This document shows positions 9,159 through 33,593 of a DNA stretch of 33,593 nucleotides, piece by piece. Below the pieces are notes generated by a model, which searched no databases, was not told the DNA's origin, and saw only the letters and a list, made by a program, of their open reading frames with translations. Both the position numbers and the translations under genes were made by a program. The stretch is from Chloroflexota bacterium (lineage in GTDB: Bacteria > Chloroflexota > Anaerolineae > Anaerolineales > UBA4823), in NCBI GenBank assembly GCA_046089985.1, contig JBJSYW010000533.1, forward strand, positions 1 to 33,593, read 5' to 3'. The first letter of the stretch is position 1. Each line of letters starts with the position of its first letter.

Positions 9159-9164
9159 GGCGCT

Positions 9165-9181
9165 ATTATACCCAGTATAAT
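9165..9181. promoter_or_regulatory. Back-to-back perfect -10 boxes in the 29-bp HAD/mutL divergent spacer
   Basis: TATAAT on the minus strand (9165-9170) lies 6 nt before the GTG at 9158. TATAAT on the plus strand (9176-9181) lies 6 nt before the ATG at 9188. Neither gap contains an SD. Confidence 0.55.
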
Positions 9182-9187
9182 ACGCCC

Positions 9188-13047: not shown

Positions 13048-13082
13048 AGCGGCTCCTTCTCTAAATATCGGGTACTTAACCA

Positions 13083-13090
13083 ATTATAAT
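13083..13090. promoter_or_regulatory. Palindromic AATTATAATT giving TATAAT on both strands (RR gene / tilS divergent promoters)
   Basis: The plus-strand TATAAT at 13085-13090 is 9 nt before the tilS ATG (13100), with no SD in between. The minus-strand TATAAT at 13083-13088 is about 35 nt upstream of the RR gene ATG (13047), which does have an SD. Confidence 0.5.
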
Positions 13091-13099
13091 CTTCTTTAG

Positions 13100-20051: not shown

Positions 20052-21047
20052 ATGTCCACCCGAACCCATTCGATGTTTCGCCTGTTGGCCGCCCTGCTTG
20101 TCTTGACCCTGCTGCTGTCTGCCTGCGCCAGTGCAGCAGCCCCGCTCGAGATGGAAGCTCGCTCCGTTGAAGGCTATGGCGGCGGCGCTCCCGCCGCGGC
20201 CCCAGCTGCGCCGGTTATGGAAGCCCCGGCGGCCGAGTCCAAAGCCTACGACGCCGCCACCGGACAGTCTGCTAACACCGCCGCCGCTCAAGAGCGCATT
20301 GTGATCACCAACGGCAGCCTGACCATCACCGTCCCGGATCCCGGGGCTTCGATGGAACGCATTCGCGCCCTGGCCAAAGAGATGGGCGGCTTCGTGGTCG
20401 GCGCTAACCTGTACAAGGAGTATTCCAACACCGGCATCGAAGTGCCGCGCGCCAACATCACCATCCGCGTCCCCGCCGGGCGCATGGATGAGGCCATGCA
20501 GCGCATCCAGGCTGAAAGCGGCCAGGAGCCGCGCAATGTGACCATCACCAGCCAGGATGTGACCAGCGAATATGTGGACCTGCAGTCTCGCCTGGCCAAC
20601 CTGGAAGCGGCCGAGAAAGAACTCACCCGCATCATGGAAGACGCCAACCGCACCGAAGACGTGCTGGCGGTCTACCAGCAGCTGGTCTCGATCCGCGAGC
20701 AGATCGAGGTGATCAAGGGCCAGATCAAGTACTACGATGAAGCCTCGGCGCTGTCGTCGATCAGCGTCGACCTGGTGGCCGATGCAGCCGTGCAGCCGAT
20801 CGAGATCGGCGGCTGGCAGCCGCAGGGCGTGGCCAAAGACGCCCTGGAAGCCCTGGTACGCACGATGCAGGGCCTGGTTGAGGTGGTGCTGTGGCTGCTG
20901 ATCTACCTGCTGCCGGTGCTGCTGGTGCTGTCGTTGATCTTTGTGCTGCCGCCGTTCCTGATCATCCGGGCGCTGGTGCGCCGCAGCCGGGCCAAGAAAT
21001 CCGCTGCAGTGGCCGACTTCCCGCCGCCTGCCGCTCCGGCCGAGTAG
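20052..21047 (+). CDS. DUF4349-family lipoprotein with C-terminal membrane anchor
   Basis: 331 aa. The lipobox 'LLSAC' puts Cys at position 25. 'ITNGSLTITVPDP', 'ANITIRVPAGRMDEAMQRI' and 'VTSEYVDLQSRLANLEAAEKEL' match the DUF4349 pattern. A C-terminal TM helix is present. A strong SD 'taaggaggaagat' precedes the ATG. Confidence 0.8.
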   Translation: MSTRTHSMFRLLAALLVLTLLLSACASAAAPLEMEARSVEGYGGGAPAAAPAAPVMEAPAAESKAYDAATGQSANTAAAQERIVITNGSLTITVPDPGASMERIRALAKEMGGFVVGANLYKEYSNTGIEVPRANITIRVPAGRMDEAMQRIQAESGQEPRNVTITSQDVTSEYVDLQSRLANLEAAEKELTRIMEDANRTEDVLAVYQQLVSIREQIEVIKGQIKYYDEASALSSISVDLVADAAVQPIEIGGWQPQGVAKDALEALVRTMQGLVEVVLWLLIYLLPVLLVLSLIFVLPPFLIIRALVRRSRAKKSAAVADFPPPAAPAE

Positions 21048-21075
21048 CCCGCCGCTACTCCCCAATTCTGATCCC

Positions 21076-21105
21076 GGATCGCCCCCCACAACTGGGGGGC
21101 GATCC
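21076..21105 (+). terminator. Intrinsic-terminator-like hairpin after the DUF4349 gene
   Basis: Perfect 12-bp stem: 'ggatcgcccccc' (21076-21087) and 'ggggggcgatcc' (21094-21105), with a 6-nt loop. Confidence 0.55.
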
Positions 21106-21107
21106 AC

Positions 21108-21113
21108 TATAAT
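21108..21113 (+). promoter_or_regulatory. -10 box for rsmG (leaderless configuration)
   Basis: Perfect TATAAT 2 nt after the hairpin and 7 nt before the ATG at 21121. There is no SD. Confidence 0.5.
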
Positions 21114-21120
21114 TACCGCC

Positions 21121-21846
21121 ATGAAAGAACTTGCTGCCGCCGCCCGCAGCCTGTTGGGGATCAGCCTGACGCCGCTGCAGATCACTGCGTTCGAGACCTA
21201 CGAGCGAGAGCTGTTGAATTGGAACGCGAAAATGAACCTGACTGCCATCCGCGAACCGGAGGGCATCCGCACCAAGCACTTCCTCGATTCGCTGACCTGC
21301 CTGCTGGTGATGCAGGGCGCTCCAATGGAGCGCGTCATCGACGTGGGCACCGGGGCCGGTTTCCCCGGGCTGGCGCTGAAGCTCCTCAACCCGGCTATGC
21401 AGTTGACCCTGGTCGAATCGGTGGGCAAGAAGGCCGATTTCTGCCGCCACGTGGCCAAAACGCTCAAACTGGACGGGGTGCAGGTGCTGACCGAGCGCGC
21501 CGAAGCCGTGGGGCAGCTAAAAGCTCACCGCCAGGCCTATGACTGGGCGCTGGCGCGGGCCGTGGCGGTGCTGCCGGTACTGGTGGAATACCTGCTGCCG
21601 CTGGCGCGCGTGGGCGGGGCGGCACTGGCTATGAAAGGCGAGAGCGCCCCGGCCGAGGCGCACGATTCCGAGCACGCCAACCGGGTGTTGGGCGGTCACC
21701 TGCGCCGGCTGGTGCCGGTCACCCTGCCGGGGGTGGTTGAGCAGCGCTACCTGGTGGTGGTGGATAAAGTGGCGGCTACGCCGTCCGGGTATCCACGCCG
21801 GGTGGGCCTGCCGGCCAAGAACCCGCTCCTGCCGGTCAAAACCTGA
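21121..21846 (+). CDS. rsmG: 16S rRNA (guanine527-N7)-methyltransferase RsmG (GidB)
   Basis: 241 aa. 'WNAKMNLTAIREPEGIRTKHFLDSL', the SAM motif 'VIDVGTGAGFPGLALK', and 'LVESVGKKADF'. Confidence 0.92.
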   Translation: MKELAAAARSLLGISLTPLQITAFETYERELLNWNAKMNLTAIREPEGIRTKHFLDSLTCLLVMQGAPMERVIDVGTGAGFPGLALKLLNPAMQLTLVESVGKKADFCRHVAKTLKLDGVQVLTERAEAVGQLKAHRQAYDWALARAVAVLPVLVEYLLPLARVGGAALAMKGESAPAEAHDSEHANRVLGGHLRRLVPVTLPGVVEQRYLVVVDKVAATPSGYPRRVGLPAKNPLLPVKT

Positions 21847-21861
21847 CGCCCGGGCTGGGCA

Positions 21862-23121
21862 CTATGGGTTTGCCGGGCCGGGCGTCACCGGGCCGGGCGT
21901 CACCGGGCCGGACCCAACCTGGCCTGACTGCACCTGCCAGACCGTCGAGCGGTGCACATATTCGCTCGAGTACAGGTCCAGGTCGGTGGTGGTGAGCATA
22001 GCCTGTTCGCTCTCTAGCAGCCGTGCAAGCAGGTCGACCCGCCGGGCGGGGTCCAGTTCTGCCAGCACTTCATCCAGCAGCAGCACCGGCCAGTGGCCGG
22101 TTTTTTCTTTCATCCAGGCCACCTCGCCCAGCTTGAGCGCCAGCACTGCCGTGCGCCCCTGGCCGCGCGAGCCATAGATCCCCAGGTCGATGCCATTGCT
22201 GAAGAAGCGCAGCTCGTCCCGGTGCGGGCCAAGGCTGGTTGTGCCGCGGGCGATATCCTCGCGGCGGGCGCGCGCCAGCGCTTCGCGGAAGCCCTTGCCG
22301 ATCTTATCCTGCGAGAGGCCCTGCCGGTCCAGGCTGGTCTTCAACGGCAGCCCCAACTGCAGCGGCGAGGTGGGGAACGGGTCAAAGGCGGGCTGGTAAT
22401 CCAGGCGCAGCACTTCCTGGCCGCGGGTCAGCTGGTGGTGGATCGGGCGCGCAATGCGCTCGATCTCCTGCACCGCCTGGATTCGGGCATGGATCAGCCC
22501 GCCGCCCAGCTGGGCCACCTGGTCGTCCCAATAATCCAGCTGCGCCGGGTCGCCGCCGCGCTCAGCCAGCGTCTTCAGCAGCGCGTTGCGCTGGGTCAGG
22601 ATGCGCGTGTACTCAGCCAGGTCGGCGGCGTAGCGCGGCCAGACCTGCCCCAGGGCCAGGTTCAGGTAGCGCCGGCGCTCATCGGGCGCACCTTCCACAA
22701 TGCGCAGCATGTGCGGCAGGAACAACACGGCGTTGAAGACGCCCATCGCTTCGCCCACCTTGCGCGGCACGCCGTCCACAATCACTTCTTTGCGCAAGCG
22801 CGGCAGGCCGCTGGCGGCGTCCAGGATCAGGCGCACTTCCATGCGGTGCGATGTCCCCGGCCCGATCTCGCCCAGGCTGCGCCGGAAATCGGCCACAATG
22901 CGCGTCACTGCCAGCGGCTCGTGCTCCACCTGGAAGCTGACCAGCTGCCGGTCGGCGCCGGCATGGAACGAGGTGAAGGTCGCCAGGTAATAGACCGCCT
23001 CCAACAGGCTGGTCTTGCCCTGGGCGTTGCCCCCCACCAACAAAACCGGCCCGCCCGGAACATCCAAATCCAGGCGGGCGAAACTGCGAAAGTTGGTCAG
23101 CGACAGATGTGTCAGCAGCAT
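21862..23121 (-). CDS. recF: DNA replication and repair protein RecF
   Basis: 419 aa. 'LSLTNFRSF', Walker A 'GGNAQGKTSLLEA', signature-like 'GSRGQGRTAVLALKL' and Walker B 'VLLLDEVLAELD'. The C-terminal tail is unusual: 'GPVTPGPVTPGP'. Its ATG overlaps the def stop by 1 nt. Confidence 0.92.
   Translation of the reverse strand: MLLTHLSLTNFRSFARLDLDVPGGPVLLVGGNAQGKTSLLEAVYYLATFTSFHAGADRQLVSFQVEHEPLAVTRIVADFRRSLGEIGPGTSHRMEVRLILDAASGLPRLRKEVIVDGVPRKVGEAMGVFNAVLFLPHMLRIVEGAPDERRRYLNLALGQVWPRYAADLAEYTRILTQRNALLKTLAERGGDPAQLDYWDDQVAQLGGGLIHARIQAVQEIERIARPIHHQLTRGQEVLRLDYQPAFDPFPTSPLQLGLPLKTSLDRQGLSQDKIGKGFREALARARREDIARGTTSLGPHRDELRFFSNGIDLGIYGSRGQGRTAVLALKLGEVAWMKEKTGHWPVLLLDEVLAELDPARRVDLLARLLESEQAMLTTTDLDLYSSEYVHRSTVWQVQSGQVGSGPVTPGPVTPGPANP
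21873..21911. repeat. 15-bp direct tandem repeat (about 2.6 copies) in the 3' end of recF
   Basis: 'ccgggccgggcgtca' occurs at 21873-21887 and 21888-21902, with a partial third copy to 21911. It encodes the (GPVTP)n tail. Confidence 0.9.
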
Positions 23122-23627
23122 TAATCGCGCGGGATCGCTTCTCCTTCAGCCGGTTTCCAGATTTTCAGCGCCCGGTCGGTGAACAACACGCCTTCCAGGT
23201 GATCGATCTCATGCTGGAAGATGCGCGCCAGCCAGCCGGAAGCCTTGACCCGCACCGGCTGACCGTGGCGGTTCTGGCCTTTGATGGTGATCTCGTTGGT
23301 GCGTTCCACATCCCCGATAAAGTTCGGGATCGACAGGCAGCCTTCCGTGCCAACCACCTGGTCTTCCGAGGTGCGCACGATCTCGGGGTTGACCATCGTA
23401 TACAGCTTCAGCGGCGCATCGTCGTCGTCTTCGTCGCCAAACTCCACCACGATCACCCGCAGCGGAACGTCAATCTGCGGCGCCGCCAACCCCACCCCGG
23501 GGGCTTCGCGCATCGTCTCCACCATGTCATCGATCAGCGTCTGCAGTTCGGGACCAAAATCGGTCACCTTGCGCGCCTTCTTGCGCAGCACCGGCGCCGG
23601 AACAGTCACAATTTCTCGTAATGCCAT
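23121..23627 (-). CDS. def: Peptide deformylase
   Basis: 168 aa. The three canonical motifs are 'GVGLAAPQI', 'EGCLSIP' and 'QHEIDHLEG'. Confidence 0.95.
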   Translation of the reverse strand: MALREIVTVPAPVLRKKARKVTDFGPELQTLIDDMVETMREAPGVGLAAPQIDVPLRVIVVEFGDEDDDDAPLKLYTMVNPEIVRTSEDQVVGTEGCLSIPNFIGDVERTNEITIKGQNRHGQPVRVKASGWLARIFQHEIDHLEGVLFTDRALKIWKPAEGEAIPRD

Positions 23628-23649
23628 CGCTTTCTACCTCTCTACAACC

Positions 23650-25356
23650 TTATCCTTCAACATCATCGCCGTCATCCTCATATACCTTATCATGGTAGAT
23701 CTCCAGCAGGTTCAGGATGCGGTCGCGCTCGCGGGCGATTTCGGCTTTCTGCTTCTGCAGCTGCAGCTGCTGCATGCGGCGGAAGATATCCTGCTGCACC
23801 CGGGCCGGTTGGTACACCCCGTCGAAGGTCAGCTTGGCGTCGCCCACGTTTACCATCACGTTCCCAAAATTGAACAGGTAGCCGATAAAACCCCGGCGTT
23901 CGTGGTTCAGGCTGATCACCCGGTCCAGCGGAGCGGAAGTGCGGTTCTCAGTGCCCAGCGGCTTGCGCTCGATGTCGTAAATGCTGTCCTTGGTGATCTG
24001 GTAAATATCGTTCGACCAATCCAAATAATTATACATCCACCATACGAATACCGGAATGCTCACCACCAGCGACAGGCCGTCGATCACCGCCAGCATATCG
24101 GCCGCCAGGCTGCCGTTGAAGTACAGCACCAGGCTGACCACGAACAGTCCAAACAGCGTCAGCAGCACCACCCCCGGTCGCAAGGTCTTCCCCAGCAGCA
24201 CCAGCCAGTGCTTGCGGTAGGTAATTACATCGCCCACTTCGGTGCGCATGCGGAACCAGTTGCCAAAGTAGCGCTCGCCGAAGCCCAGTTCCTCGGCTTC
24301 ACCGGGACGGGTCTCCTGGCGGCGCGTCTGGCGGCGGCTGGCTGCCGCGGCAGCCAGCGGCGGCGGCGGGCCAGACGGCTCGCGCTTCAGGATCTTCAGC
24401 ACCTCGCGCTCGGTTTCCGACTTCTGCGCCTCCACCGCCAGGCGCTGGTGGCGCCGCCAGAACTCACGGATCACCGCGTCCATCTGGTACGGGTCGCTCA
24501 CCAGGCGCAGCGGCACTTCGCCGGTATAGGTGGTGACGACGATATCGCCATACCCCAGCCAGCGCCCCACCAGGCTGGTCAGGATCTTGGTGCCGCGCAC
24601 CTGGTCCAGCGGTGCTTCCACCTGGCTCTCGTACAACCACAGCACCCGTTCGATCCACACCACGCGCTGGTTGGTGACGATGTAATAATCGTTGCCCCAG
24701 TCGATCCAGTTCCACAGCCCCCAGGCGGCAGCGCTGAACGCTAACAGGCTGCCCACGATCAGCGCGCCGGTCTGCAGCGGGCCGGTTAATACCGCCCACA
24801 GTGTAAACGTCACGATCAGCCCCCCCAGCAGCAGCAGCAGGAACGGCAGGACCAGCGTCAGCAGCAGGTAGGCCGGGTGCTTGCGGCGCACCTGGTAGAC
24901 GGTCTCGTTCTCGTTCAGCCAGCTGAACGGGTAGCGGCGGATGAACTGGCGGCTGTAGATAATCCAGTTCAGGTAATTGCCCACGTGGGGGAACTCGGCC
25001 AGCAGCTTGTGGAAGGCCTGTTTCTCCGAAACGAGGAGGGTCACCTCACCATTTGCCCGAGCGGTTGCTGCCCGGGGACGGTGAAGGATCAGGCCCTCCT
25101 CGCCGAAGTAATCGCCCGTGGTGAGCATATCCAACTGGCGGTCTTCATTTTTCAATCGGGTGCTAAAAATGACATCGCCCTGTTGGATGATATAGAAGGC
25201 ATCGGCCGGGCCGCCCTGCTCACAGATCAGCTGCCCGGGTTGGTAGACCACCTCTTTGAAAAAACCGGCGGCCCTGGACAGCTGCGCTTCATCCATCCCT
25301 GAAAAGAGGTGGATCTCCTTAAAGAGTGGAATGGCCCGCGCGCGTTCGACCCTCAT
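23650..25356 (-). CDS. Cyclic-nucleotide-binding domain protein fused to two membrane-anchored bPH_2 (YdbT/YdbS-like) modules
   Basis: 568 aa. The N-terminal cNMP-binding fold is 'LFSGMDEAQL...GGPADAFYIIQQGDV...GDYFGEEGLI...RAATARA'. Two TM hairpins follow, each trailed by a PH-like segment: 'YYIVTNQRVVWIERV...GDIVVTT' and 'IYQITKDSIYDIERKP...GNVMVNVG'. Confidence 0.75.
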   Translation of the reverse strand: MRVERARAIPLFKEIHLFSGMDEAQLSRAAGFFKEVVYQPGQLICEQGGPADAFYIIQQGDVIFSTRLKNEDRQLDMLTTGDYFGEEGLILHRPRAATARANGEVTLLVSEKQAFHKLLAEFPHVGNYLNWIIYSRQFIRRYPFSWLNENETVYQVRRKHPAYLLLTLVLPFLLLLLGGLIVTFTLWAVLTGPLQTGALIVGSLLAFSAAAWGLWNWIDWGNDYYIVTNQRVVWIERVLWLYESQVEAPLDQVRGTKILTSLVGRWLGYGDIVVTTYTGEVPLRLVSDPYQMDAVIREFWRRHQRLAVEAQKSETEREVLKILKREPSGPPPPLAAAAASRRQTRRQETRPGEAEELGFGERYFGNWFRMRTEVGDVITYRKHWLVLLGKTLRPGVVLLTLFGLFVVSLVLYFNGSLAADMLAVIDGLSLVVSIPVFVWWMYNYLDWSNDIYQITKDSIYDIERKPLGTENRTSAPLDRVISLNHERRGFIGYLFNFGNVMVNVGDAKLTFDGVYQPARVQQDIFRRMQQLQLQKQKAEIARERDRILNLLEIYHDKVYEDDGDDVEG

Positions 25357-25366
25357 GCATCCCGCA

Positions 25367-25987
25367 TCAGGCGGTGCGCAGCTTGCGCGCCAGGAAGATC
25401 ACCGCTGCCAGCAGCACAGCCAGGCCCAGCATCACCGGCAGGCCCACTTCATCGGCAAAGCCGGTCTGGGGCATGGCAGTGGGTTGGACGGCGCCGCGCG
25501 CCGTCGCCGTCATGGCGTTCATTGTCACGATCGCTTCCAATGTGACATAGCGCGCCGTGGCTGTGGCGTCATCCGGCGAGATCGGCGCCCCGCCGCTGTC
25601 TGGCGCGGCCGCCGCCGGGGCGGAGGGCTGCGCCACAACCGGGGTGGGGGTCAGCGTGATGGTGGGCGTGGGCGGGACCGGGGTGTTGGTGGGGGTAGCC
25701 GTATAGGCCGCCACAATCGCCGTCTCGGCCGCGGAGGTGGAGGTCTGCTGCACAATCGCTTCTACTTCGGTCTGCTGAGCATCCAGGGTGGCCTGGCGGG
25801 CAACGGTACCGGCGCGCGAGCGCGGCAGCAGCACCAGGGCATACACAGCGATGCACACCAGCGCCAGCAGGGCAATGCCGCCCAGGGCCGCCGCAATAAT
25901 CAAGAAGGTGCGGTTGCTCGATTCTTCCACCGGCGGCGGCGCATCTTGGTTCAGGGTGTCATCCAGGTCCAGGTTTTCGAAACTCAT
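25367..25987 (-). CDS. Pro/Thr-rich exported protein with N-terminal anchor helix and C-terminal sortase-type sorting signal (MPQTG + TM + RKLR)
   Basis: 206 aa. It has an acidic N-terminus, a helix 'FLIIAAALGGIALLALVCIAVYALVLL' and a 'TPTNTPVPPTPTITLTPTP' linker. The C-terminus reads 'MPQTG' (25460-25474), then a hydrophobic stretch of about 24 aa, then 'RKLRTA'. A GAGGAG SD precedes the ATG. Confidence 0.7.
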   Translation of the reverse strand: MSFENLDLDDTLNQDAPPPVEESSNRTFLIIAAALGGIALLALVCIAVYALVLLPRSRAGTVARQATLDAQQTEVEAIVQQTSTSAAETAIVAAYTATPTNTPVPPTPTITLTPTPVVAQPSAPAAAAPDSGGAPISPDDATATARYVTLEAIVTMNAMTATARGAVQPTAMPQTGFADEVGLPVMLGLAVLLAAVIFLARKLRTA

Positions 25988-26004
25988 AGCATTCTCCTCT
26001 TCGA

Positions 26005-27057
26005 CTATGCGATCACTTCAAGGTTCGCCAGCGGAATAATCGCCTTTGCGCCGTTTTCCAGGCGCACTTCGGCAGCCGGGGCGCGCAGCCCGCCAGGGAA
26101 AACCACCGATCCCTTCATGGCAGTGAGGACACCGGCGGCCCCGGCGTAGGGCGCCCGGCGGATGCGCACCGCCTGGTCCAGCGCAAACTGGACCGATTCA
26201 GGCGGGGGGGTGACCAAACCGGAAGGCGGCATGGGGATGACCACCTCCGGACGAACGCCGCTGTAAGCGTTCCAGGCATCGGCGTTCAATGCCAGTTCGC
26301 GGCGGTCGCTGCTGATCAGCAGCTTGAAGGCGGCCGGGTGATAGGCCCGCCGGCCAAAGCCTTCCAGCACAATCACCGGGATGTTCAGGCGCTGCAGCTG
26401 CGGCGCCAGCGCGGCGCTCACGCCGGAGAAGATCAGCCCGCGCAGCGGCAGCTCGTCGGCCGTCTTGAGCGCTTCTGCGCTGGCGCCGTACCCCGCCAGC
26501 ACGATCGAGCCGCGCATGCTCACATCCAGGTCGGAAGGCTGCAGTTCGTGCTCGGGCTGGCGGGCTACGCAGGTCAGCACGCCGAAGTCGAGCCGGCCGT
26601 TGCCCCATACGCCTTGGATCAGCGCCCCCGTGCCTTCGACTACTGCGCCGCGCTCGGGCACCAGATCCACCACTTCGCCCGGCAGCCCGGCCTTGATCTG
26701 CAGCGGTTTGCTGAGCGTTTCCAGCAGCACCTGGCCGTTGCCAGCCAGCATCACCCGCCCGTCACGCGGGCAGCGGATCACCCGTTTGAAGATCCCCACC
26801 GGGCCGGCCAGGATGTCTTTCTCAGCCAGCTGATCGCCTTCGTGCACCTTCAGGTGCTTATCGGCTTTCTCGGCCGGCAGCCCCAGGCCGCGGGCGATGT
26901 CCACCAACAGGTAATCGGCGTTGGCGGTTGTCTCGGCCAGCACATCGCTCGGGCCGACCTTCTGCCCGGCGCGCACCAGCACTTTGCCGGGCGCCGGCAG
27001 CAGCCGGGTGCGGCGGATGGTGGTCAGCGGCAAGATATGGGTCACCGGCGCTAGCAT
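26005..27057 (-). CDS. Hypothetical protein with barrel-sandwich-hybrid-like N-terminus and KOW-like C-terminus
   Basis: 350 aa and soluble. 'GKVLVRAGQKVGPSDVLAE' resembles lipoyl/biotinyl-type hybrid barrels. C-terminal 'VRIRRAPYAGAAGVLTAMKG...VRLENGAKAIIPLANLEVI' resembles a KOW motif. A GGGAGG SD precedes the ATG. A 1-nt gap separates it from the upstream stop. I recognise no family. Confidence 0.65.
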   Translation of the reverse strand: MLAPVTHILPLTTIRRTRLLPAPGKVLVRAGQKVGPSDVLAETTANADYLLVDIARGLGLPAEKADKHLKVHEGDQLAEKDILAGPVGIFKRVIRCPRDGRVMLAGNGQVLLETLSKPLQIKAGLPGEVVDLVPERGAVVEGTGALIQGVWGNGRLDFGVLTCVARQPEHELQPSDLDVSMRGSIVLAGYGASAEALKTADELPLRGLIFSGVSAALAPQLQRLNIPVIVLEGFGRRAYHPAAFKLLISSDRRELALNADAWNAYSGVRPEVVIPMPPSGLVTPPPESVQFALDQAVRIRRAPYAGAAGVLTAMKGSVVFPGGLRAPAAEVRLENGAKAIIPLANLEVIA

Positions 27058-27058
27058 G

Positions 27059-28810
27059 CTACTGGCCTCCCAGGTTCCACAACCATTTTTTATACAGCTC
27101 GGCCCTGCGCCCCCGGTCGGCCGGCAGGTTCAGTGGGCGGCCGCGGGCGTCGATAATCACCCCCAGCACGCCGCCCATCACGCGCAAACCGCCGCCGCGC
27201 CCCGGCGCGCCCATGCCAATATCGGCGCGGTGCAGCGGCTGCAGCTGCAGCTTCGCCATCTGCCCAGCCGGCAGCGGCAGCATCTCCAGGCTGCCCTGCT
27301 TGACCTCCAGCGAGGCTTCGTATCCGCTCTCATAGACGATCTTCAACCGCAGCACCGGCTCACCGCTGCGCACGCGCGCCAGCGGCGCAATCACCGTGCC
27401 GATATGCAGCAGCGAATTGGAATCGAGCACCTGCACCACCAGGGTGGGGTTTTGCGCCGCAGCCGCCCCCAACGCCGATACCATGTTGTGCTGGTCCAGC
27501 ACCATCGTGGTGATCCCGGTCGGCTGGATTCCATCCAGCATCATCAGCGTGCTGTGAGCCACGTTGGGCGCGCCCGCCAGCACCCCGCCGGCGGCGATGA
27601 TCGGCTCGAAGGCCGGCAGCAGCCCGGTTGCCAGCGGTTGGGCGGCCGCCGGGAAACCCGGGGCGGCCGCTTTCAGGGCGCTACGCATCAGATAGCGCGC
27701 CAGCGCCTGCTCGATCGCCATCTCTTCCGCCGTAGCCGGCAGGCTGTCGGGCAGCAGGGCTTTGTTGTACAGGTAGTCGCGCAGGTCGTCAAGCGGCATA
27801 TCCAATGCCAGCCAGCTGGAGATCGCCTCCAGCGCGCCGGGGTCGCTCTCATACACCGGACTGCCCATCCCATACTGTGGAAAAACGTTTAACGACAGGC
27901 TGCCGTCATACGCCGCCGCCACGCTGATCGCCCCCGCGCCCAGGTCGATCCCCAGGACACCTTTACGGGTGGCGTGGGTCTTGCTCTGGATGCGCACGAT
28001 GCGCCCAAAGGCGCTGGCGGTGGGCAGCAGCCCGCCGCCGGCCCAGCGGTTCAACTCGTCCACCCCGGGGATCTGCTTCGCTCGCACCTGAGTGTACATG
28101 CGCGCCATCTCGGCTCGTGCGCCTTCGATCTGCTCGGTCTCCAGATCGGGCCGCAGGTTGGGGGCAAAATGCAGGTTGGTGACCGGGCCCAGGCTCTCCT
28201 GGATTTCGTCTTTGAGGCTATCGTTGCCAGCGAACAGCAGTTCCGGACGGCCGCTGCTGCCGGTCAGATAGCCGTACAGGCCAACCGCCTCCAGCATCTG
28301 GATCACCGACTGCGACGCGCCGCCCTGCGTCCCGCCCGCGGCGATGATCAGGTCCGGGCGTTGGCGCAGCAGCAGGTTAATGCGCGTGTCGGTGCGCCGG
28401 CGGTCATTCAGGCTGAACGCCCCCTGCACGTTAGCATACGTGGAGGCCGCCAGCCGCCGGGCGCTTTCCAGGCTGATATCTTCCAGCAGGCCCACCACCA
28501 CCACCTTGAGCGGCTCGCCGGCCGAGAGCGTGGCGGCGAAACGGTCAATTCCCGAGCCGTCTGGTGCGGAAGGGATGATCAACTGCTCATCCGCGCCGAT
28601 CAGCGTGCGTCCGGTGATCGTCTGCAAGCGGTCCAGCGCCAGCCGCACGCCTTCGCCAACATTATTGAAGGGAGCTTTAGCGGTGGACGGCGCCGTGCCG
28701 GAGGCCACAAAGCGGTAACGCCCCTCGACCACATCAAAGAGCACCGCGCGGGTGTTCACCGTGCCGACATCTACAACCAGGAAGGAATCTGCATCGAGCA
28801 ACGAAGTCAT
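27059..28810 (-). CDS. GlmL/'glutamate mutase L'-type ASKHA-superfamily (actin/Hsp70-fold) ATPase with C-terminal extension
   Basis: 583 aa. Phosphate-1 motif 'FLVVDVGTVNTRAVLFD', 'GEPLKVVVVGLLEDISLESARRLA', 'PDLIIAAGGTQGGASQSV', 'LLFAGNDSLKDEI', and a second-lobe motif 'VLGIDLGAGAISVAAA'. The order matches GlmL-family proteins as I recall them. The C-terminal roughly 120 aa ends in 'GVIIDARGRPLNL'. Confidence 0.7.
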   Translation of the reverse strand: MTSLLDADSFLVVDVGTVNTRAVLFDVVEGRYRFVASGTAPSTAKAPFNNVGEGVRLALDRLQTITGRTLIGADEQLIIPSAPDGSGIDRFAATLSAGEPLKVVVVGLLEDISLESARRLAASTYANVQGAFSLNDRRRTDTRINLLLRQRPDLIIAAGGTQGGASQSVIQMLEAVGLYGYLTGSSGRPELLFAGNDSLKDEIQESLGPVTNLHFAPNLRPDLETEQIEGARAEMARMYTQVRAKQIPGVDELNRWAGGGLLPTASAFGRIVRIQSKTHATRKGVLGIDLGAGAISVAAAYDGSLSLNVFPQYGMGSPVYESDPGALEAISSWLALDMPLDDLRDYLYNKALLPDSLPATAEEMAIEQALARYLMRSALKAAAPGFPAAAQPLATGLLPAFEPIIAAGGVLAGAPNVAHSTLMMLDGIQPTGITTMVLDQHNMVSALGAAAAQNPTLVVQVLDSNSLLHIGTVIAPLARVRSGEPVLRLKIVYESGYEASLEVKQGSLEMLPLPAGQMAKLQLQPLHRADIGMGAPGRGGGLRVMGGVLGVIIDARGRPLNLPADRGRRAELYKKWLWNLGGQ

Positions 28811-28811
28811 A

Positions 28812-29486
28812 TCAGGCCGCCGGTGTAATCAAGACCAGGATCAGGTGGATGATCGCATCCCAGCGCTCGATCAGCGCTGCCAGCGCCGCCGCGTACACCC
28901 CGGCGAAGATCGTCCCCAGCGTGACCGCGATGAAGACCTGCCCGGTGGCAGACACGCCGCGCAGCAGCAGGCCGGGCGAGCCGGCGCTGAGGCGTGGGCT
29001 GAGGTTGAACTGGAAATACGCCAGCGTCGCAAGGGTGCCGGCCAGGATCACCAACCCGTTGAGCACGGTCAGCGCGTCGCTGCGGTCAATCTGCTGGATG
29101 CCGGCGCGCACCTGGGGCAGCAGCGTGCCCAGCACAGCGCCGCCGATCAGCGCCGCCGCGCCCACGCCGACCAGGAAGGCCATCACCGGGCTGCCCAGCC
29201 CCGCCAGCCGGGTGGTGGCCTTGCTGAGCAGCAGCAGCGCTCCCAGCAGCGGCACAGCCGCCAGCAGCATCTGGTCGGGCATACCTGATAGGAACGGCAG
29301 CACCAGCCGCGGCACGATCAGATTGGTGATCACCACCGCCGCCGTGTAACCGGCGGCGACCCCGATGAAGATATGGATCGCGGTGCGGAACAGCACGTTG
29401 TCGCCAAATAGATAGCTAAACACCATCAGGGTGAGCAAGAAACCCACCAATCCGCCCAGCAGCGTGCTCAGGTCGATTCCGTTCAT
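28812..29486 (-). CDS. Polytopic integral membrane protein, uncharacterised
   Basis: 224 aa with about 6 hydrophobic helices (for example 'LLGGLVGFLLTLMVFSYLF' and 'IHIFIGVAAGYTAAVVITNLIV'). It has an ATGA overlap with the upstream gene and a 1-nt gap to the downstream gene. Confidence 0.7.
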   Translation of the reverse strand: MNGIDLSTLLGGLVGFLLTLMVFSYLFGDNVLFRTAIHIFIGVAAGYTAAVVITNLIVPRLVLPFLSGMPDQMLLAAVPLLGALLLLSKATTRLAGLGSPVMAFLVGVGAAALIGGAVLGTLLPQVRAGIQQIDRSDALTVLNGLVILAGTLATLAYFQFNLSPRLSAGSPGLLLRGVSATGQVFIAVTLGTIFAGVYAAALAALIERWDAIIHLILVLITPAA

Positions 29487-32400
29487 GATTTCGCCTCACC
29501 CTGGCTGCCCGCCGCCGGGCGATCCGCCGGGCGGGAGGCCTTGCGGTTCGCGTTCCAACGGCTGATCAGGTTGAACAGGATGCCCACCAGCATCAAGACG
29601 CCGGCCACCAGCATGCCGACGGTATAGGCCGGCCAGTAGCGGGTGCCGGCGCCAGCTTGCACGGTGGCCCATTCCAGGGCCGCTGCACCGTACAGCCCGC
29701 TGACCAGCCCCTGCACCTGCCCGGCGTCATAATACGGGCGCACCATCGGCTCGGCCTGGGCGCTGCTCACCACCACCAGCGGCAGCGACCCCGCCAGCGG
29801 GCGGTGCACCTGCTCGATCCAACTGCGCGCCGTTTCAGGGTCATCCACCGCAACGATCAACAGCTTGAAGCCCGCCAGCCCGCCGGGCTGGCGCAGCCCG
29901 GCCTGGGTCTGCCAGACCGGTTCGCCATTCACATCCAACGGCAGCACTGCCGCCGGGCAGACGGCAAACGCCAGCAGGCCGGAAGCGCCGCCGGGGACCA
30001 GCCCCAGGTTGGTATAATCCTGCGGCGACTGCCATGCCGGCCCCTGGGCCTGCCGCGAAACGGCCAGCAAATGCTCGGCCTGCAGCGGCCCGGTGGGCAG
30101 CGTGGAGACCATCGCCAGATAGGCCTGGCGCTCAGACAGCTGCCGCAGCACAACCTGCATGATTGGGTCCAGTTCGCCCGAGTACCCCGGCTGATAATCG
30201 ACCGCCAACAGCACCGGCGATTGGGGCGGCACGCTGCGCAGCAGTTCCAGCGCCGTCGCCACTTCCGGCGCCATCGCCGGAGCAGCCGCCGGCGGATAGC
30301 CAGTGAACAACGACAGCGCCACCGGCAGGATCAACAGGAAAGCCATCGCCAGGCGCAGCACGCCCAGCGAGGTGATCGCCGGTTTGCCGGGCGGCGGCGG
30401 GTTCTGCCCTTCCTGCGCCACCAGCTGGCCAAGCAGTTCGGCCTGCGTGCGATGCAGATCGGAAACAACCAACCGTCCGGTATAAGCCGGCGGACGAGTG
30501 GCCTGCGAGATATCCGGCTCGGCGCGCAGCGCGCCGCGCAGCCCAGCCAGCGGGCCGGCCCCAGCCACACCCTCACTCTCATCGGCGGCGGCAGCCGCCG
30601 CGCCCACCGCCCCCACCGGGCGCATCGCCTGCAGCCAACCGGGCAGTTCAGAGGGCGCCAGGTCGGCAGGGGCGGCAGCCGCCAGCCCGGCTTCGTCCGG
30701 CTCCTGCGCCACCCAGGTCGGCAGGCCCACATCGGCAGCGGGCAGTTCAGCCACCCGATCGCCCGAGGCGCTGTCGCCGGCTTCACCGTCCTCCGGCTGC
30801 ACCTGCTCCAGCCAGCTCAGGTCGCCTTCGCCCAGTGCGCTGCCATCGGCAGCCGTGGAGAAACCGGGCGTGGCGCCGGCAATTGCCGCCATCCAGTCTG
30901 GCATGCCCGGCTGGGCCGCCGGCTCCAGGGCAGCCCCATGATCAGGCTGGACCAACCAATCTGGGGTCTCAAACAGCTCTGCTGCGCCGGAAGGTTCGCC
31001 CGCCCCCAGGCCGGCGTCTGCGGCAGGCTCGCCGGCCGCGCCGGGGGTCTCGGCCGCCTCGTCAGCCGCGCTGCTGAGCCAATCCAGTTCTTCATCACCC
31101 GGCCAGGCGGCGTCGCCGCCGGCGCTCAGCCAATCCGGCACTTCACCGGCTGCGGTTGAAGAGGCCGGAGCCGCGCCCGGCGCAGCGCGGTCTGCTGCGG
31201 CGCTATCTGGAGCCGCCGGGGAAGCCGCCGCACCGGCAGACGGCGTCAGCCAGTCAGACAGCGCTTCGTCACCCGCCGCGGCCATCCAGTCCGGCAGTTC
31301 GGTCGCCTGAGCCGGGGCTTCTGCCTGCGGCGCGGCCGGGAAGACCTCCGCTCCTGCGGCGGCGCCCGCCGGGCTGAGCCAGTCGGGCAGGCCGCCTGGG
31401 GCGCTCGCCTCAGCAGGCGCCATCCAATCGGGCAGTTCACCCGGGGCACTCTCATCCGTAGACGCCATCCAATCGGGCAGTTCGGCCGGGGCGCTTTCTC
31501 CAGCACCCGTCATCCAGTCCGGCAGTTCGGCCGGGGCGCTTGCATTGGCAGACGCCATCCAATCGGGCAGATCAGCCTGCCCCGGGGTGGGTGGAGCCGC
31601 CGGCTCCGGTTTCAGCCAATCCGGCGTATCGTCCGCCAGGTGCGCATCTCCGCTTCCCGACAACCAGTCCGGCAGATCAGCCTGGGCCGGCGGGTTCAGC
31701 CAATCCGGCAGATCGCCGGACGGCTGCGCCGGCTGTGCCGACGGGAAGACCTCCGCCCCCAAGGATGGGGTATCGGTACTCGATGCGCTCATACTCGCAG
31801 CGCCGGCGCTGAGCCAGTCCGGCAGACCGCCGGACGGTGGGGCTTCATTGGCGGAAGACATCCAGTCCGGCAGTTCATCAGCCGGCTGGGCCTCACTGGC
31901 AGACGCCATCCAGTCCGGCGCTGCCGGGCCGGGCTGTGGCGCCGCCGCTCCCGGCTCCGGCTTGAGCCAGTCGGGCAGGTCATCGGCGGCCGGGGTGCTG
32001 TTCAGCCAGTCGGGCAGGCCGCTGTCTGCCGCATCAGGGATCGGCTGTGACAGGAAATCAGCCTCGCCATTGGCAGCCTGGCCTGGCTTATCAGACGCCG
32101 GCTCCTGCCCGCCAATGCGCGACAGCCAATCCCCGGCCGCGCTGTCTTCATACTCGCCGCTCGCCGGGCTGTCCCACTCCTCGGCAGATCCGGGGGCGTC
32201 TCCCAGGATTTCATCCAGCCAATCTCGCCCGCCGCCCGCCGGAGCGTCCGAGGCGGCGTCCTGAGCGGGGACGTTCTCAGCCGGCAGTTCCGGCTCGGAG
32301 CGCAGCCCGCTCAACCAATCCGGCAGCCCATCCTGCGCTCCCGGCGCAGCTGAGCCGGGCTTACCCGGCGGCTGGTTGTCCGGCTGGCGCAGATCGCTCA

Positions 32401-32563
32401 GCCAGCCAGGCAGGCTGAACTCTTCCCCTCCGCCGGCCGGCTGGTCGGGGTTCAGGTCGCCCAGCCAGACCGGTTTGAGGCGCGCCTGGCAGAACTGGCA
32501 CACATCCCGGTCGGCCGGGTTGGGTTTTCCACACATCGGACAGCGCACGTCAGCCATGCTCAT
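29483..32563 (-). CDS. Zinc-ribbon protein with about 600-aa acidic PDW[LM]-repeat region and C-terminal TM-ectodomain-TM module
   Basis: 1026 aa. 'CPMC-x10-CQFC' spans residues 8-25. I hand-counted 26 copies of xPDW[LM]-type motifs between residues 51 and 645. TM helices lie at about 731-753 and 979-1001 and flank an alpha/beta-looking domain of about 225 aa. ATGA overlaps occur at both ends of the gene. Confidence 0.8.
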   Translation of the reverse strand: MSMADVRCPMCGKPNPADRDVCQFCQARLKPVWLGDLNPDQPAGGGEEFSLPGWLSDLRQPDNQPPGKPGSAAPGAQDGLPDWLSGLRSEPELPAENVPAQDAASDAPAGGGRDWLDEILGDAPGSAEEWDSPASGEYEDSAAGDWLSRIGGQEPASDKPGQAANGEADFLSQPIPDAADSGLPDWLNSTPAADDLPDWLKPEPGAAAPQPGPAAPDWMASASEAQPADELPDWMSSANEAPPSGGLPDWLSAGAASMSASSTDTPSLGAEVFPSAQPAQPSGDLPDWLNPPAQADLPDWLSGSGDAHLADDTPDWLKPEPAAPPTPGQADLPDWMASANASAPAELPDWMTGAGESAPAELPDWMASTDESAPGELPDWMAPAEASAPGGLPDWLSPAGAAAGAEVFPAAPQAEAPAQATELPDWMAAAGDEALSDWLTPSAGAAASPAAPDSAAADRAAPGAAPASSTAAGEVPDWLSAGGDAAWPGDEELDWLSSAADEAAETPGAAGEPAADAGLGAGEPSGAAELFETPDWLVQPDHGAALEPAAQPGMPDWMAAIAGATPGFSTAADGSALGEGDLSWLEQVQPEDGEAGDSASGDRVAELPAADVGLPTWVAQEPDEAGLAAAAPADLAPSELPGWLQAMRPVGAVGAAAAAADESEGVAGAGPLAGLRGALRAEPDISQATRPPAYTGRLVVSDLHRTQAELLGQLVAQEGQNPPPPGKPAITSLGVLRLAMAFLLILPVALSLFTGYPPAAAPAMAPEVATALELLRSVPPQSPVLLAVDYQPGYSGELDPIMQVVLRQLSERQAYLAMVSTLPTGPLQAEHLLAVSRQAQGPAWQSPQDYTNLGLVPGGASGLLAFAVCPAAVLPLDVNGEPVWQTQAGLRQPGGLAGFKLLIVAVDDPETARSWIEQVHRPLAGSLPLVVVSSAQAEPMVRPYYDAGQVQGLVSGLYGAAALEWATVQAGAGTRYWPAYTVGMLVAGVLMLVGILFNLISRWNANRKASRPADRPAAGSQGEAKS
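30629..32413 (-). repeat. Coding array of 26 dispersed PDW[LM]-type peptide motifs (DNA cores ccaGTCcggcag / ccaATCgggcag on the plus strand)
   Basis: There are 18 exact P-D-W-[LM] copies and 8 degenerate copies (LPGWL x2, RDWL, GDWL, LSDWL, ELDWL, LSWL, LPTWV). Spacers are 6-45 aa and rich in A/P/G/S/D/E. Synonymous codons differ among copies. Confidence 0.9.
31376..31573 (-). repeat. 45-bp (15-aa) periodic tandem block inside the PDW array
   Basis: Residues 331-396 read LPDWMA-SANASAPAE / LPDWMT-GAGESAPAE / LPDWMA-STDESAPGE / LPDWMA-PAEASAPGG / LPDWLS. The plus strand shows the recurring 'catccaRtcSggcagttc'. Confidence 0.85.
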
Positions 32564-33186
32564 CCACCGTACGGGCGGTCAGCGCCCATCAGAACGCGCA
32601 GACCGGCGGTAACCGATCCAAGCGCCACGCCCAGTAAAATACCGCGCGCCCCGGCCGTCGCCATGGCCTGCAGCAGCCAGACGCGCAGTTCGGTCACACC
32701 CGGCACACCCACCCCACCCAGGAAGAAGGTGGTCAGCAGCAGCACCAGCACCGTGGCGGCGAAAACCAGCGTAAACAGGTTGGCGCGCCGGTAGAGCATC
32801 CGCCCAACGGCGAACACCAGCACCACCGCCAGCAGCGCCAGCAGGCTGGACTCGACCGGCAGCAGCAGGTTCTGGTAAATCCAAACCGAAGGGGCGCTGG
32901 ATAAACCAAAAACCAGCCCCACCACCAGCGTGACCACCAGCGACAGCAGCAGCACCAGGCTGTAGAACAGACCAGGCTGACCGGTACGCACTTTCTTCCA
33001 ATGCACGCGGGCCAGGTTCAGCACACCCACCAGCAGGGCCGCTCCAGCCAGCAGCGTAGCCCAATCGACCAGCAGCACGCGGGCCGGCGTGAGCAGGGGC
33101 AGATCAATAAAATACGGCGCCAGCACAATCAACCCGCTGGCGATAGCGATCATCGCCAGCAGCGGGGCCTGCACCCGGCGGTTCAC
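32560..33186 (-). CDS. Polytopic integral membrane protein, uncharacterised
   Basis: 208 aa with a GTG start, and about 6 hydrophobic helices. It has a GTGA overlap with the upstream ORF and an ATGA overlap with the downstream giant gene. Confidence 0.65.
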   Translation of the reverse strand: MNRRVQAPLLAMIAIASGLIVLAPYFIDLPLLTPARVLLVDWATLLAGAALLVGVLNLARVHWKKVRTGQPGLFYSLVLLLSLVVTLVVGLVFGLSSAPSVWIYQNLLLPVESSLLALLAVVLVFAVGRMLYRRANLFTLVFAATVLVLLLTTFFLGGVGVPGVTELRVWLLQAMATAGARGILLGVALGSVTAGLRVLMGADRPYGG

Positions 33187-33593
33187 AGCACACCTGCCAG
33201 GCGCAGCAGTGCGCCGATGATCATCCCCAGCACCAGCAGCAGCCGCGCCACATCCTGCGCCTGCACGCTGGCGGTATGCGCCGCGCCCACCTGGGTGTAG
33301 GCGCCGGCGGCGTACAGTTCCTCACCCACCAGCGGCTCCTGCGCCAGGGCATACAGCACAGCCTGCGCTGCCAGGTTCTCCGAACCACCCAGGCTGGCGC
33401 CGCCGCTGCGTTCGGCTGCATCGGCGATCAGCGCCGCCTCTGCGCCAAACGAACCCGCCAGCATGTTCACTGACACCTGCTGGTCGTAGACCACCGGCAG
33501 CGCCCCGGCAGCATACGAGAACGGCGTCACCCCTGCCAGCATCCCGGCGTGCGGGTCATACTGGTCCTCGGCGTTGACCGCCTGGAAGGCGCT
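33183..33593 (-). CDS. Hypothetical (probably membrane-associated) protein, 5'-truncated by the window edge
   Basis: The reading frame stays open to the last base of the window ('SAFQAVNAEDQYDPHAGMLAGVTPF...'). It ends in a hydrophobic helix 'LLLVLGMIIGALLRLAGVL'. The listed ATG at 33542 is probably internal. Confidence 0.55.
   Translation of the reverse strand, partial: SAFQAVNAEDQYDPHAGMLAGVTPFSYAAGALPVVYDQQVSVNMLAGSFGAEAALIADAAERSGGASLGGSENLAAQAVLYALAQEPLVGEELYAAGAYTQVGAAHTASVQAQDVARLLLVLGMIIGALLRLAGVL

Follow-up and report, generated by a model that had tools for sequence, protein, structure and literature searches.

GlmL (MutL) proteins are accessory factors of the B12-dependent glutamate/methylaspartate mutase and belong to the ASKHA superfamily. 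GlmL-type ASKHA proteins are thought to be ATP-dependent, chaperone-like factors, in line with the established view of reactivases. Elsewhere in this superfamily, a shared logic can be recognised, in which an ASKHA protein at the membrane meets a partner that offers a cytoplasmic peptide, a transmembrane (TM) segment and an ectodomain; FtsA with the FtsZ C-terminal peptide or FtsN, PilM with the N-terminus of PilN, and MreB with RodZ can be described in this way. The C-terminal peptide of FtsZ has the sequence DIPAFLR. Its binding to both FtsA and ZipA involves residues I374, F377 and L378 (PMC8669495). In this work, a stretch of 33,593 nucleotides (nt) from a Chloroflexota bacterium (Anaerolineales, UBA4823; assembly GCA_046089985.1, contig JBJSYW010000533.1), hereafter the window, was compared with related loci. 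It carries a block of genes, g0-g7 in its complete form, in which a GlmL-family ATPase (g5) is encoded together with membrane proteins, a motif-rich scaffold (g3) and a protein with a sorting signal (g7). The eight genes are very probably one functional module, and the ensemble is outside every described kind of system tested.

The locus resembles each of the described systems only in part. The g3 motif L-P-x-W-L mirrors the I-P-x-F-L of FtsZ in the spacing of its residues. However, g5 lies in another ASKHA branch than FtsA, PilM and MreB, no match to the FtsA, PilM, MreB, PilN, PilO or RodZ families was found, and g3 bears up to about 27 copies of the peptide on a membrane-anchored protein, where its docking to g5 is a prediction. 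The gliding protein GltJ of Myxococcus has an N-terminal zinc ribbon and a proline-rich linker, which serve as the cytoplasmic docking module of an envelope-spanning machine. The membrane protein g3 likewise begins with a cytoplasmic zinc ribbon and continues with a long disordered linker, although there is no sequence relationship (the sole match to GltJ is the low-complexity g7, at E 0.08), and the locus has no outer-membrane domain, Agl motor or MglA. With the LPXTG-type sortase substrates of monoderm bacteria (TIGR01167), g7 shares the LPxTG motif (MPQTG here), the hydrophobic segment and the basic tail. In contrast to these substrates, g7 begins with an acidic cytoplasmic N-terminus and a TM segment, the rest of its mature part is only a low-complexity Pro/Thr spacer, and it is the last gene of an operon for an ATPase and membrane proteins.

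The eight-gene block and its distribution

The window proteins were mapped onto the fetched related loci; two further loci (L085 and L086) were added later and inspected as gene tables. The order g1-g2-g3-g4-g5-g6-g7 was invariant across the mapped loci, and the set g0-g7 was complete in 59 of the 61 loci with enough upstream sequence. The same eight-gene architecture was present in L085 and L086, where the identity of g6 is only about 33%, and the synteny holds well outside this genome. The small gene g0 precedes g1 in 62 of the 63 loci that have g1, with a 4-nt overlap between the two in 54 of these 62. Start/stop overlaps of 4 nt also recur in the relatives at g1/g2 (51 of 63 loci) and g3/g4 (43 of 71), and thus the 4-nt packing is no local accident. 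All eight genes lie on the same strand, and each is a clade-restricted orphan or a divergent subfamily. We delimit the module as g0-g7 because the order is fixed, the set is nearly complete, and the downstream genes g8, def and recF are not constant. A sequence-only reading of the window had proposed an eight-gene, overlap-coupled cluster that ends with g8. The packed block is real and its coupling and order are conserved, whereas g8 falls outside the conserved part and g0 upstream had been overlooked. This g0 is the real first gene of the operon; it is missing from the window because the window is the entire contig, the end of which truncates g1, and the operon's first gene lies beyond that end.

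Two exceptions to the complete arrangement were seen (L076 and L080), in which g6 and g7 stay paired beside unrelated genes. Therefore, the operon can split between g5 and g6. In both loci (in L076 at 10001-11680), g6-g7 stand with a convergent phosphoglucomutase (PGM) gene near genes for adenosine deaminase, a B12-radical SAM protein and MTHFR.

By scanning one genome per GTDB species, at least 595 genomes with the g6 pattern were obtained. The best 80 of these at least 595 genomes are Anaerolineae-type metagenome-assembled genomes, one of which is assigned to Anaerolinea thermophila, and they also include two contigs that are evidently mis-binned. Both g5 and g6 have more than 1,500 database relatives of near-constant length (for g6, 1589 representative clusters at E<=1e-3), and the named relatives all come from Anaerolineales, Anaerolineae or Chloroflexota. 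The block is chromosomal, has def, recF, rsmG and PFOR around it, and occurs throughout the class. Its character appears to be that of a housekeeping locus, because it is chromosomal, surrounded by core genes, class-wide and free of PADLOC matches. Taken as a whole, g0-g7 are an Anaerolineae-wide, translationally coupled operon, which may, with low confidence, encode an envelope-spanning membrane complex.

In the window, the listing of open reading frames (ORFs) confirmed eight head-to-tail minus-strand ORFs within 23650-33593, seven of the module and g8. The junctions along this block, read from the sequence, are -4, -4, -4, +1, +1, +17 and +10 nt: a GTGA overlap at 33183-33186, two ATGA overlaps (32560-32563 and 29483-29486), spacers of a single nucleotide at 28811 and 27058, a spacer of 17 nt that bears GAGGAG, and a last spacer of 10 nt. 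The gene def begins 22 nt past g8, and the overlap of recF and def is 1 nt. All of these had been described correctly from the sequence at the outset. No TATAAT box or hairpin inside the block had been seen in that first reading; a consensus scan of 21000-33593 returned no sigma-70-like site against 1.2 expected, and the 10 terminator-like matches are no excess over the 6.5 +/- 2.1 expected from shuffled sequence, every one of them falling within coding sequence. The module is laid out in the window as follows (aa, amino acids).

33183-33593, minus strand: g1, C-terminal 136 aa of a DUF6754 protein (PF20539, E 3e-15)
32560-33186, minus strand: g2, membrane protein of 208 aa, about 6 TM segments; its GTG start overlaps the g1 stop (GTGA)
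29483-32563, minus strand: g3, 1026-aa scaffold with zinc ribbon, repeats, TM, ectodomain and TM
32471-32548, minus strand: zinc ribbon of g3, residues 6-31 (sub-threshold Pfam zinc-ribbon models, recurrent in homologues)
30626-32416, minus strand: disordered motif array of g3, residues 50-646
31379-31570, minus strand: 45-nt tandem DNA array in g3, 4.3 copies (Tandem Repeats Finder score 209, 76% matches)
29564-30361, minus strand: C-terminal TM/ectodomain/TM module of g3, g3C (AlphaFold2, AF2; mean predicted local distance difference test, pLDDT, 90.9; predicted template-modelling score 0.81)
28812-29486, minus strand: g4, 224-aa polytopic membrane protein with about 6-7 TM segments
27059-28810, minus strand: g5, 583-aa ASKHA NTPase of the GlmL/MutL family (PF13941, E 8e-60)
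26005-27057, minus strand: g6, 350-aa cytoplasmic protein with barrel-sandwich and KOW/SH3-like domains (AF2 and Foldseek)
25367-25987, minus strand: g7, 206-aa bitopic Pro/Thr-rich protein, TM at residues 28-46
25370-25474, minus strand: sorting signal of g7, MPQTG with hydrophobic segment and RKLRTA (TIGR01167)

The encoded proteins

No match in Pfam, NCBIfam or PADLOC was found for g0, g2, g4, g6, g7 (apart from its sorting signal) or the g3 ectodomain, even when divergent homologues were included. Sequence profile searches of the PDB with alignments of g1, g2, g4, g5, g6 and g3C gave nothing better than E 0.01. Family scans detected no component of Sec, Tat, YidC, ABC, Pil, Gsp, Tad, Fts, Mre, ESX or defence systems, and for a type IV pilus or type II secretion platform (PilM-PilN-PilO, GspL, pilins, secretion ATPase) none of the nine proteins had a Pfam or NCBIfam match. 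In PADLOC-DB v2, there was no match for g0-g7, and g8 had only generic matches to cyclic nucleotide monophosphate (cNMP) domains. A defence system was rejected on these PADLOC results and on the class-wide, chromosomal and housekeeping setting of the operon. The structure predictions are monomer models; Foldseek searches with those of g6 and g3C gave only matches to single domains or generic folds. In the literature searched, nothing relevant was found on DUF6754, PF13941 or GlmL in combination with ASKHA cell biology, and LPDWL was met only in capsid peptides of adeno-associated virus. The early impression that the ensemble matches no known secretion, pilus, defence or transport family was thus upheld, and it extends to solved structures.

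The ATPase g5 matches PF13941 (MutL/GlmL) at E 8e-60, with 203 bits against a gathering score of 27, which makes it a member of that family. The phosphate-binding motifs D14-x-G16...T20, GGT-x-GG at 159-164 and D289-x-G291 are invariant; residues D14, G16, T20, G159, G160, D289, G291 and G408 are invariant or nearly so, which leaves the phosphate-1, phosphate-2 and adenosine motifs intact, and the alignment with E. coli GlmL agrees. Judged by these intact nucleotide-binding motifs, g5 is an NTPase of the PF13941 branch. On the other hand, it scores 89.4 bits with the NCBIfam GlmL model NF040745 (cutoff 475) and 77.1 bits with TIGR01319 (cutoff 204), and over residues 13-371 its identity with genuine E. 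coli GlmL is 26%. The E. coli locus used as comparator reads glmS-glmL-glmE-methylaspartate ammonia-lyase, and neither GlmS nor GlmE nor methylaspartase was found in the window or in any of 83 related loci; the absence of GlmS and GlmE from the window had been noted at first. A B12-binding or MutE gene was likewise found neither in the window nor beside the homologues. Because of score and context, true GlmL membership, and with it glutamate fermentation, was rejected. While g5 shares the Pfam family and the ASKHA phosphate-binding motifs with GlmL/MutL, it differs from them by an additional C-terminal domain, beta-rich and about 120 aa long, by a near-invariant terminal tail RRxELxKKWLWTLGG and by its context in an operon of membrane proteins. 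The KKWLWTLGG end of this tail is similar in composition to the membrane-targeting sequences of MinD and FtsA. Canonical glmL matches were also obtained in two PLSDB entries of E. coli, NZ_CP141089.1 (4.94 Mb) and NZ_CP134663.1 (4.90 Mb), which are probably chromosomes filed as plasmids.

The scaffold g3 consists of an N-terminal zinc ribbon, an acidic disordered region rich in Ala, Pro and Gly, a TM helix, an extracytoplasmic alpha/beta domain, a second TM helix and a basic tail, in agreement with the arrangement first read from its sequence. The zinc ribbon is below the Pfam threshold but recurs in the homologues, the N-termini of which are conserved, with the family consensus RCPMCGKxNPxxxxxCQFCQARLKP. 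The motif of the disordered region has the consensus [ED]-[LIV]-P-[DE]-W-[LM]-x-x-[LM]-R across 70 homologues. In the window copy, PDW[LM] occurs 18 times in strict form, and loose W-motifs number about 27; in the family, the strict count ranges from 0 to 19 with a median of 4, the 18-19 of the window and locus L006 being at its upper end, and short forms of 530-550 aa retain 3-4 motifs of the D-W-L type. At the DNA level, tandem units of 45 nt (15 aa) encode ELPDWM(A/T)xxxxSAP, and this repeat is a sign that the array has grown recently. The TM helices span residues 735-753 and 982-1000, and AF2 models residues 754-981 between them as a Rossmann-like three-layer alpha/beta ectodomain. Its conserved residues cluster at the strand ends and form a crest with the motifs VDYxPGxSGE, VSTxPTGP, NLGYIPGG and SAQAEP. 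In a Foldseek search of the PDB with the g3C model, no neighbour was significant; the best E value was 6e-3, and only generic Rossmann folds, VWA-I/integrin-I domains and halves of GT-B folds were returned.

The sorting signal of g7 scores 19.8 bits with TIGR01167 (cutoff 15.9), which marks it as an LPXTG-type C-terminal signal. It is conserved in nearly all of the about 80 homologues, with the family consensus ALPxTGFADEVGLPGLLGMAVLLIVVIFLARRLRTA, and it is the sole signal of this type in the window; g7 is always the last gene of the operon. The signal had been recognised from the start, and it proved to be family-wide, whereas the bitopic nature of the protein had been overlooked. It begins with an acidic stretch of about 27 residues that closes with the conserved PPPEESSNRTF; a TM segment (28-46) comes next, and then a conserved helix and a Pro/Thr-rich spacer. 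The TM segment is long, has no obvious cleavage site and resembles a signal anchor. Because of the conserved cytoplasmic N-terminus and the TM segment, g7 looks like a membrane-to-wall tether and not like an ordinary secreted surface protein. Longer forms occur in L013 (12965-14053, 362 aa) and L074 (3435-4670, 411 aa), and in L013 an ORF with a PDZ-like stretch precedes the long LPxTG protein; therefore, the extracellular part of g7 can gain extra domains.

The length of g6 is nearly fixed across its family, in which the motif LIQGVWGNG is invariant. The AF2 model (pLDDT 76.6) shows N-terminal beta domains of the barrel-sandwich-hybrid type, a central alpha/beta part and a C-terminal KOW/SH3-like domain, and the Foldseek matches in the PDB are at the level of single domains only: Thermotoga NusG (DII), Spt5 KOW, PetP and RpoC2 SI3. 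A barrel-sandwich and KOW-like protein had been anticipated, and both analyses bear this out. The N-terminus weakly resembles RnfC/NqrA-type and biotin-lipoyl barrel-sandwich domains, but g6 belongs to no Pfam family and contains no biotinyl-lysine or Fe-S motif. A biotin-dependent decarboxylase or an Rnf/Nqr-like pump, to which these weak matches pointed, was rejected since neither a cofactor motif nor a partner family was present.

Five products of the operon are embedded in the membrane, namely the integral subunits g1, g2, g3 and g4 and the small g0, and two, g5 and g6, are cytoplasmic; g0, g1, g2 and g4 are not paralogues according to hhalign comparisons among them. The g0 protein (85-90 aa; for example, L031:2638-2910 and L003:5223-5495) has a W-rich N-terminus, a hydrophobic hairpin GPLxxLGAQxVYxGQPxL and an acidic C-terminal helix. 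The g1 protein, hydrophobic and 5'-truncated in the window, as had been read, belongs to DUF6754 (PF20539); the truncated copy scores 56 bits and full-length homologues reach 79-99 bits, all above the gathering score (E 4e-28 for the homologue in L031). Full-length relatives of about 250 aa have an N-terminal TM segment, a conserved soluble domain of about 190 aa and a C-terminal TM segment; the soluble domain is probably cytoplasmic because an Arg-rich stretch follows TM1. The polytopic character of g2 and g4 was likewise confirmed. In g2, a Glu at the start of TM4 and the cytoplasmic C-terminal tail GADRPYGG are invariant, as are the charged residues E112, R129 and R181 at TM boundaries. In g4, the invariant features are a GDNxLFR loop and the charged residues D29, R34 and R208, also at TM boundaries.

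Proposed mechanism and competing explanations

A membrane platform with a cytoplasmic actin-fold ATPase and a multivalent disordered scaffold had been suggested for the locus from the outset, and this general picture fits the anatomy of the proteins. We hypothesize, as a tentative proposal that may well prove wrong, that the products form an envelope-spanning complex in which g5 and g6 dock on peptides of the membrane subunits and g7 is tied to peptidoglycan. In such a complex, g5 and g6 would be the nucleotide-switched cytoplasmic part. They would be recruited through short conserved cytoplasmic peptides, namely the [ED]-L-P-D-W-L-x-x-L-R array of g3, the GADRPYGG tail of g2 and the PPPEESSNRTF motif of g7, and the SH3/KOW-like domain of g6 is a candidate reader of the last of these. 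The reading of such a peptide by an ASKHA protein has a precedent, because the L-P-x-W-L spacing of g3 matches the FtsZ peptide that docks on FtsA, and a contact of g6 with g7 fits the fact that the two stay together where the operon splits. In addition, the basic-aromatic tail KKWLWTLGG of g5 may bind the membrane directly. Once cut by a sortase, g7 would have its C-terminus covalently joined to peptidoglycan and would still possess the TM segment and cytoplasmic motif of its N-terminal part, and its Pro/Thr spacer would span the distance from the complex to the wall and so tie one to the other. The Rossmann-like ectodomain of g3 could be the outward-facing working or sensing part.

As for the role of the complex, constitutive envelope biogenesis or maintenance (wall-membrane coupling, filament growth or septation) is most likely; metabolism, defence and nutrient transport are less likely. 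A more specific version, to which we give somewhat less credence still, is that of an Anaerolineae-specific envelope machine, in which a GlmL-branch ATPase was recruited from the maintenance of B12 enzymes, reads an array that resembles the FtsZ tail, and has a sortase-anchored bitopic tether as its mechanical link to peptidoglycan. As part of the same idea, the work of this machine would lie in the growth, septation or wall-membrane coupling of multicellular filaments.

Several observations weigh against such a complex. The only known role of GlmL-type proteins is that of accessory factors to B12 mutases, and binding of peptides or membranes is not known for any of them. The strict PDW[LM] count falls to 0-1 in some lineages, so a large g3 array is not essential, and the likeness of the g3 motif to the FtsZ peptide concerns four residues only and could be due to chance. 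The fold of the g3 ectodomain is generic. With rank 71 among 573 windows, the g5 tail does not stand out in hydrophobic moment, and an amphipathic membrane-targeting helix at this C-terminus is kept only as a possibility. Moreover, g7 is without a typical cleavable signal peptide and its processing is assumed; no ORF containing TLxTC, as expected of a sortase, was found in any fetched locus.

Among the competing explanations, an accessory of division or the cytoskeleton survives best, and even this is unlikely. Here g5 would be an FtsA-like, possibly polymerising and membrane-tethered protein, and the g3 array, a mimic of the FtsZ C-terminal peptide, would organise g5 or compete for or recruit FtsZ-binding proteins at filament septa. 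The spacing of [ED]-L-P-x-W-L in g3 equals that of D-I-P-x-F-L in FtsZ, where I, F and L are the contact residues, and the motifs of both lie within a long disordered linker. The conserved basic-aromatic tail of g5, reminiscent of the targeting sequences of FtsA and MinD, and the class-wide housekeeping nature of the operon also agree with a function in division. However, g5 is outside the FtsA family and sits in the GlmL/hydantoinase branch, not with FtsA, MreB or ParM, the resemblance to an FtsA/FtsZ divisome is confined to the spacing of a short motif, and the literature gave no hint of unusual division in Anaerolineae. No polymerising member of the GlmL/hydantoinase branch is known. A replacement of FtsZ by the operon, conceivable if Anaerolineae should lack FtsZ, found no support in the literature searched and was dropped.

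A dedicated route for the export, insertion or anchoring of g7, by analogy with the accessory Sec pathway for LPXTG glycoproteins, is a little more doubtful. The membrane proteins would then form a conduit, with g5 and g6 as its cytoplasmic chaperone or energiser, and the chaperone-like action ascribed to GlmL-type proteins would suit this task. That g7 is the only LPxTG protein here, has no normal signal peptide, always closes the operon and remains with g6 when the operon splits is also consistent with such a route. Nevertheless, components like SecA, SecY, YidC or Tat are absent, seven helper genes seem excessive for a small, low-complexity protein, and the cytoplasmic motif and TM segment of g7 resemble a permanent anchor and not a cleaved targeting signal.

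A transporter or ion-translocating complex is improbable. In this case, g2 and g4 would form the pathway, as their invariant charged residues at TM boundaries might suggest, while g5, like GlmL, would maintain or reactivate it as an ATPase, in keeping with the service of its relatives to enzymes. The weak RnfC/NqrA- and biotin-lipoyl-like signal in the g6 N-terminus points in the same direction, but g6 has neither a biotinyl-lysine nor an Fe-S motif, and in no subunit was a transporter, Rnf/Nqr, decarboxylase or cofactor-binding family detected. The disordered peptide array and the wall-anchored g7 would be left unexplained.

Neighbouring genes and biological meaning

Downstream of the module, the window contains the following genes.

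23650-25356, minus strand: g8, non-core, 568 aa; cNMP-binding domain, two TM-hairpin/bPH modules (Pfam, internal duplication)
23121-23627: def, follows g8
21862-23121: recF, follows def

The description of g8 as a cNMP-binding protein with two bPH_2 domains was right as to the cNMP_binding domain (E 1e-18) and, for Pfam, a single bPH_2 domain; the other bPH module came to light only through an internal duplication (29% identity, E 2e-12). With CRP-type cNMP domains and bPH_2 proteins of the YdbS/YdbT type, g8 shares the cNMP_binding domain and the two TM-hairpin/bPH modules, but it is a neighbour outside the conserved module. In 58 related loci, g7 faces a convergent 486-aa gene of the phosphoglucomutase/phosphomannomutase family (PGM_PMM Pfam domains), for example at L003:13527-14987 (minus strand) and L031:11895-13517 (minus strand). 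This gene is not found at the g7-g8 position in the window or its nine closest relatives, and it is because of this absence that the cNMP/bPH gene stands beside g7 here.

It had been suggested that 21862-33593 may be a single transcript and that a cyclic nucleotide may tune the module; on this reading, g8 would control the machine and def and recF would be co-transcribed with it in a ten-gene unit. In the window itself, the spacers of 10, 22 and -1 nt without a terminator or promoter match would allow this, and g8 adjoins g7 in 9 loci as well. These 9 are only the closest relatives, however, whereas the oppositely oriented PGM_PMM gene parts g7 from g8 in 31 loci, and 19 loci having at least 5 kb downstream of g7 contain none of g8, def and recF there. 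Across the mapped loci, g8, def and recF travel as a trio of their own. A single transcript is therefore not general, the proposed regulation rests on a lineage-specific adjacency, and a cNMP-regulated ten-gene unit has little to recommend it as an explanation of the system. The genes g8, def and recF are neighbours of one sub-lineage that lost the PGM gene from that position.

That there is no system at all, and that unrelated genes have stayed adjacent only through slow rearrangement in one clade, is barely credible: the sampled loci do all come from one class, in which PFOR, PGM, def, recF and rsmG are partly syntenic too, but these other neighbours are lost or rearranged in many loci where g0-g7, all on one strand and all clade-restricted orphans or divergent subfamilies, keep their order in 59 of 61 and conserve their start/stop overlaps.

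Some further features of the window were recorded. The 3' end of recF (21862-21930) encodes a Gly/Pro/Val/Thr repeat (GPVTPGPVTPGPANP), with which the product ends outside its RecF/SMC_N domain. At 11893-14359 (minus strand), a response-regulator receiver is fused to a CbiA/MinD/ParA-type ATPase in a 396-aa protein of TadZ/CpaE-like architecture, and the gene overlaps by 8 nt a 427-aa ORF without a Pfam match. A 732-aa ORF at 8789-10987 also has no Pfam match.

Anaerolineae are among the most abundant and widespread bacteria of the uncultured majority, in sediments, anaerobic digesters, activated sludge and the subsurface, and their cell biology, that is, the envelope architecture, filament growth and septation, is hardly known. 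An eight-gene operon that is intact in at least 595 species and lies among core genes likely has a basic cellular function. With the present analysis, names and boundaries are given to six orphan families and DUF6754, whose members currently bear the label hypothetical or the misleading one of glutamate mutase L. If the proposed mechanism is true, the GlmL branch of the actin/Hsp70 superfamily would have its first role outside the mutases, and there would be a bacterial case of a multivalent scaffold of short linear motifs. It would also mean a new mode of wall tethering, by a sortase substrate that retains its membrane anchor.

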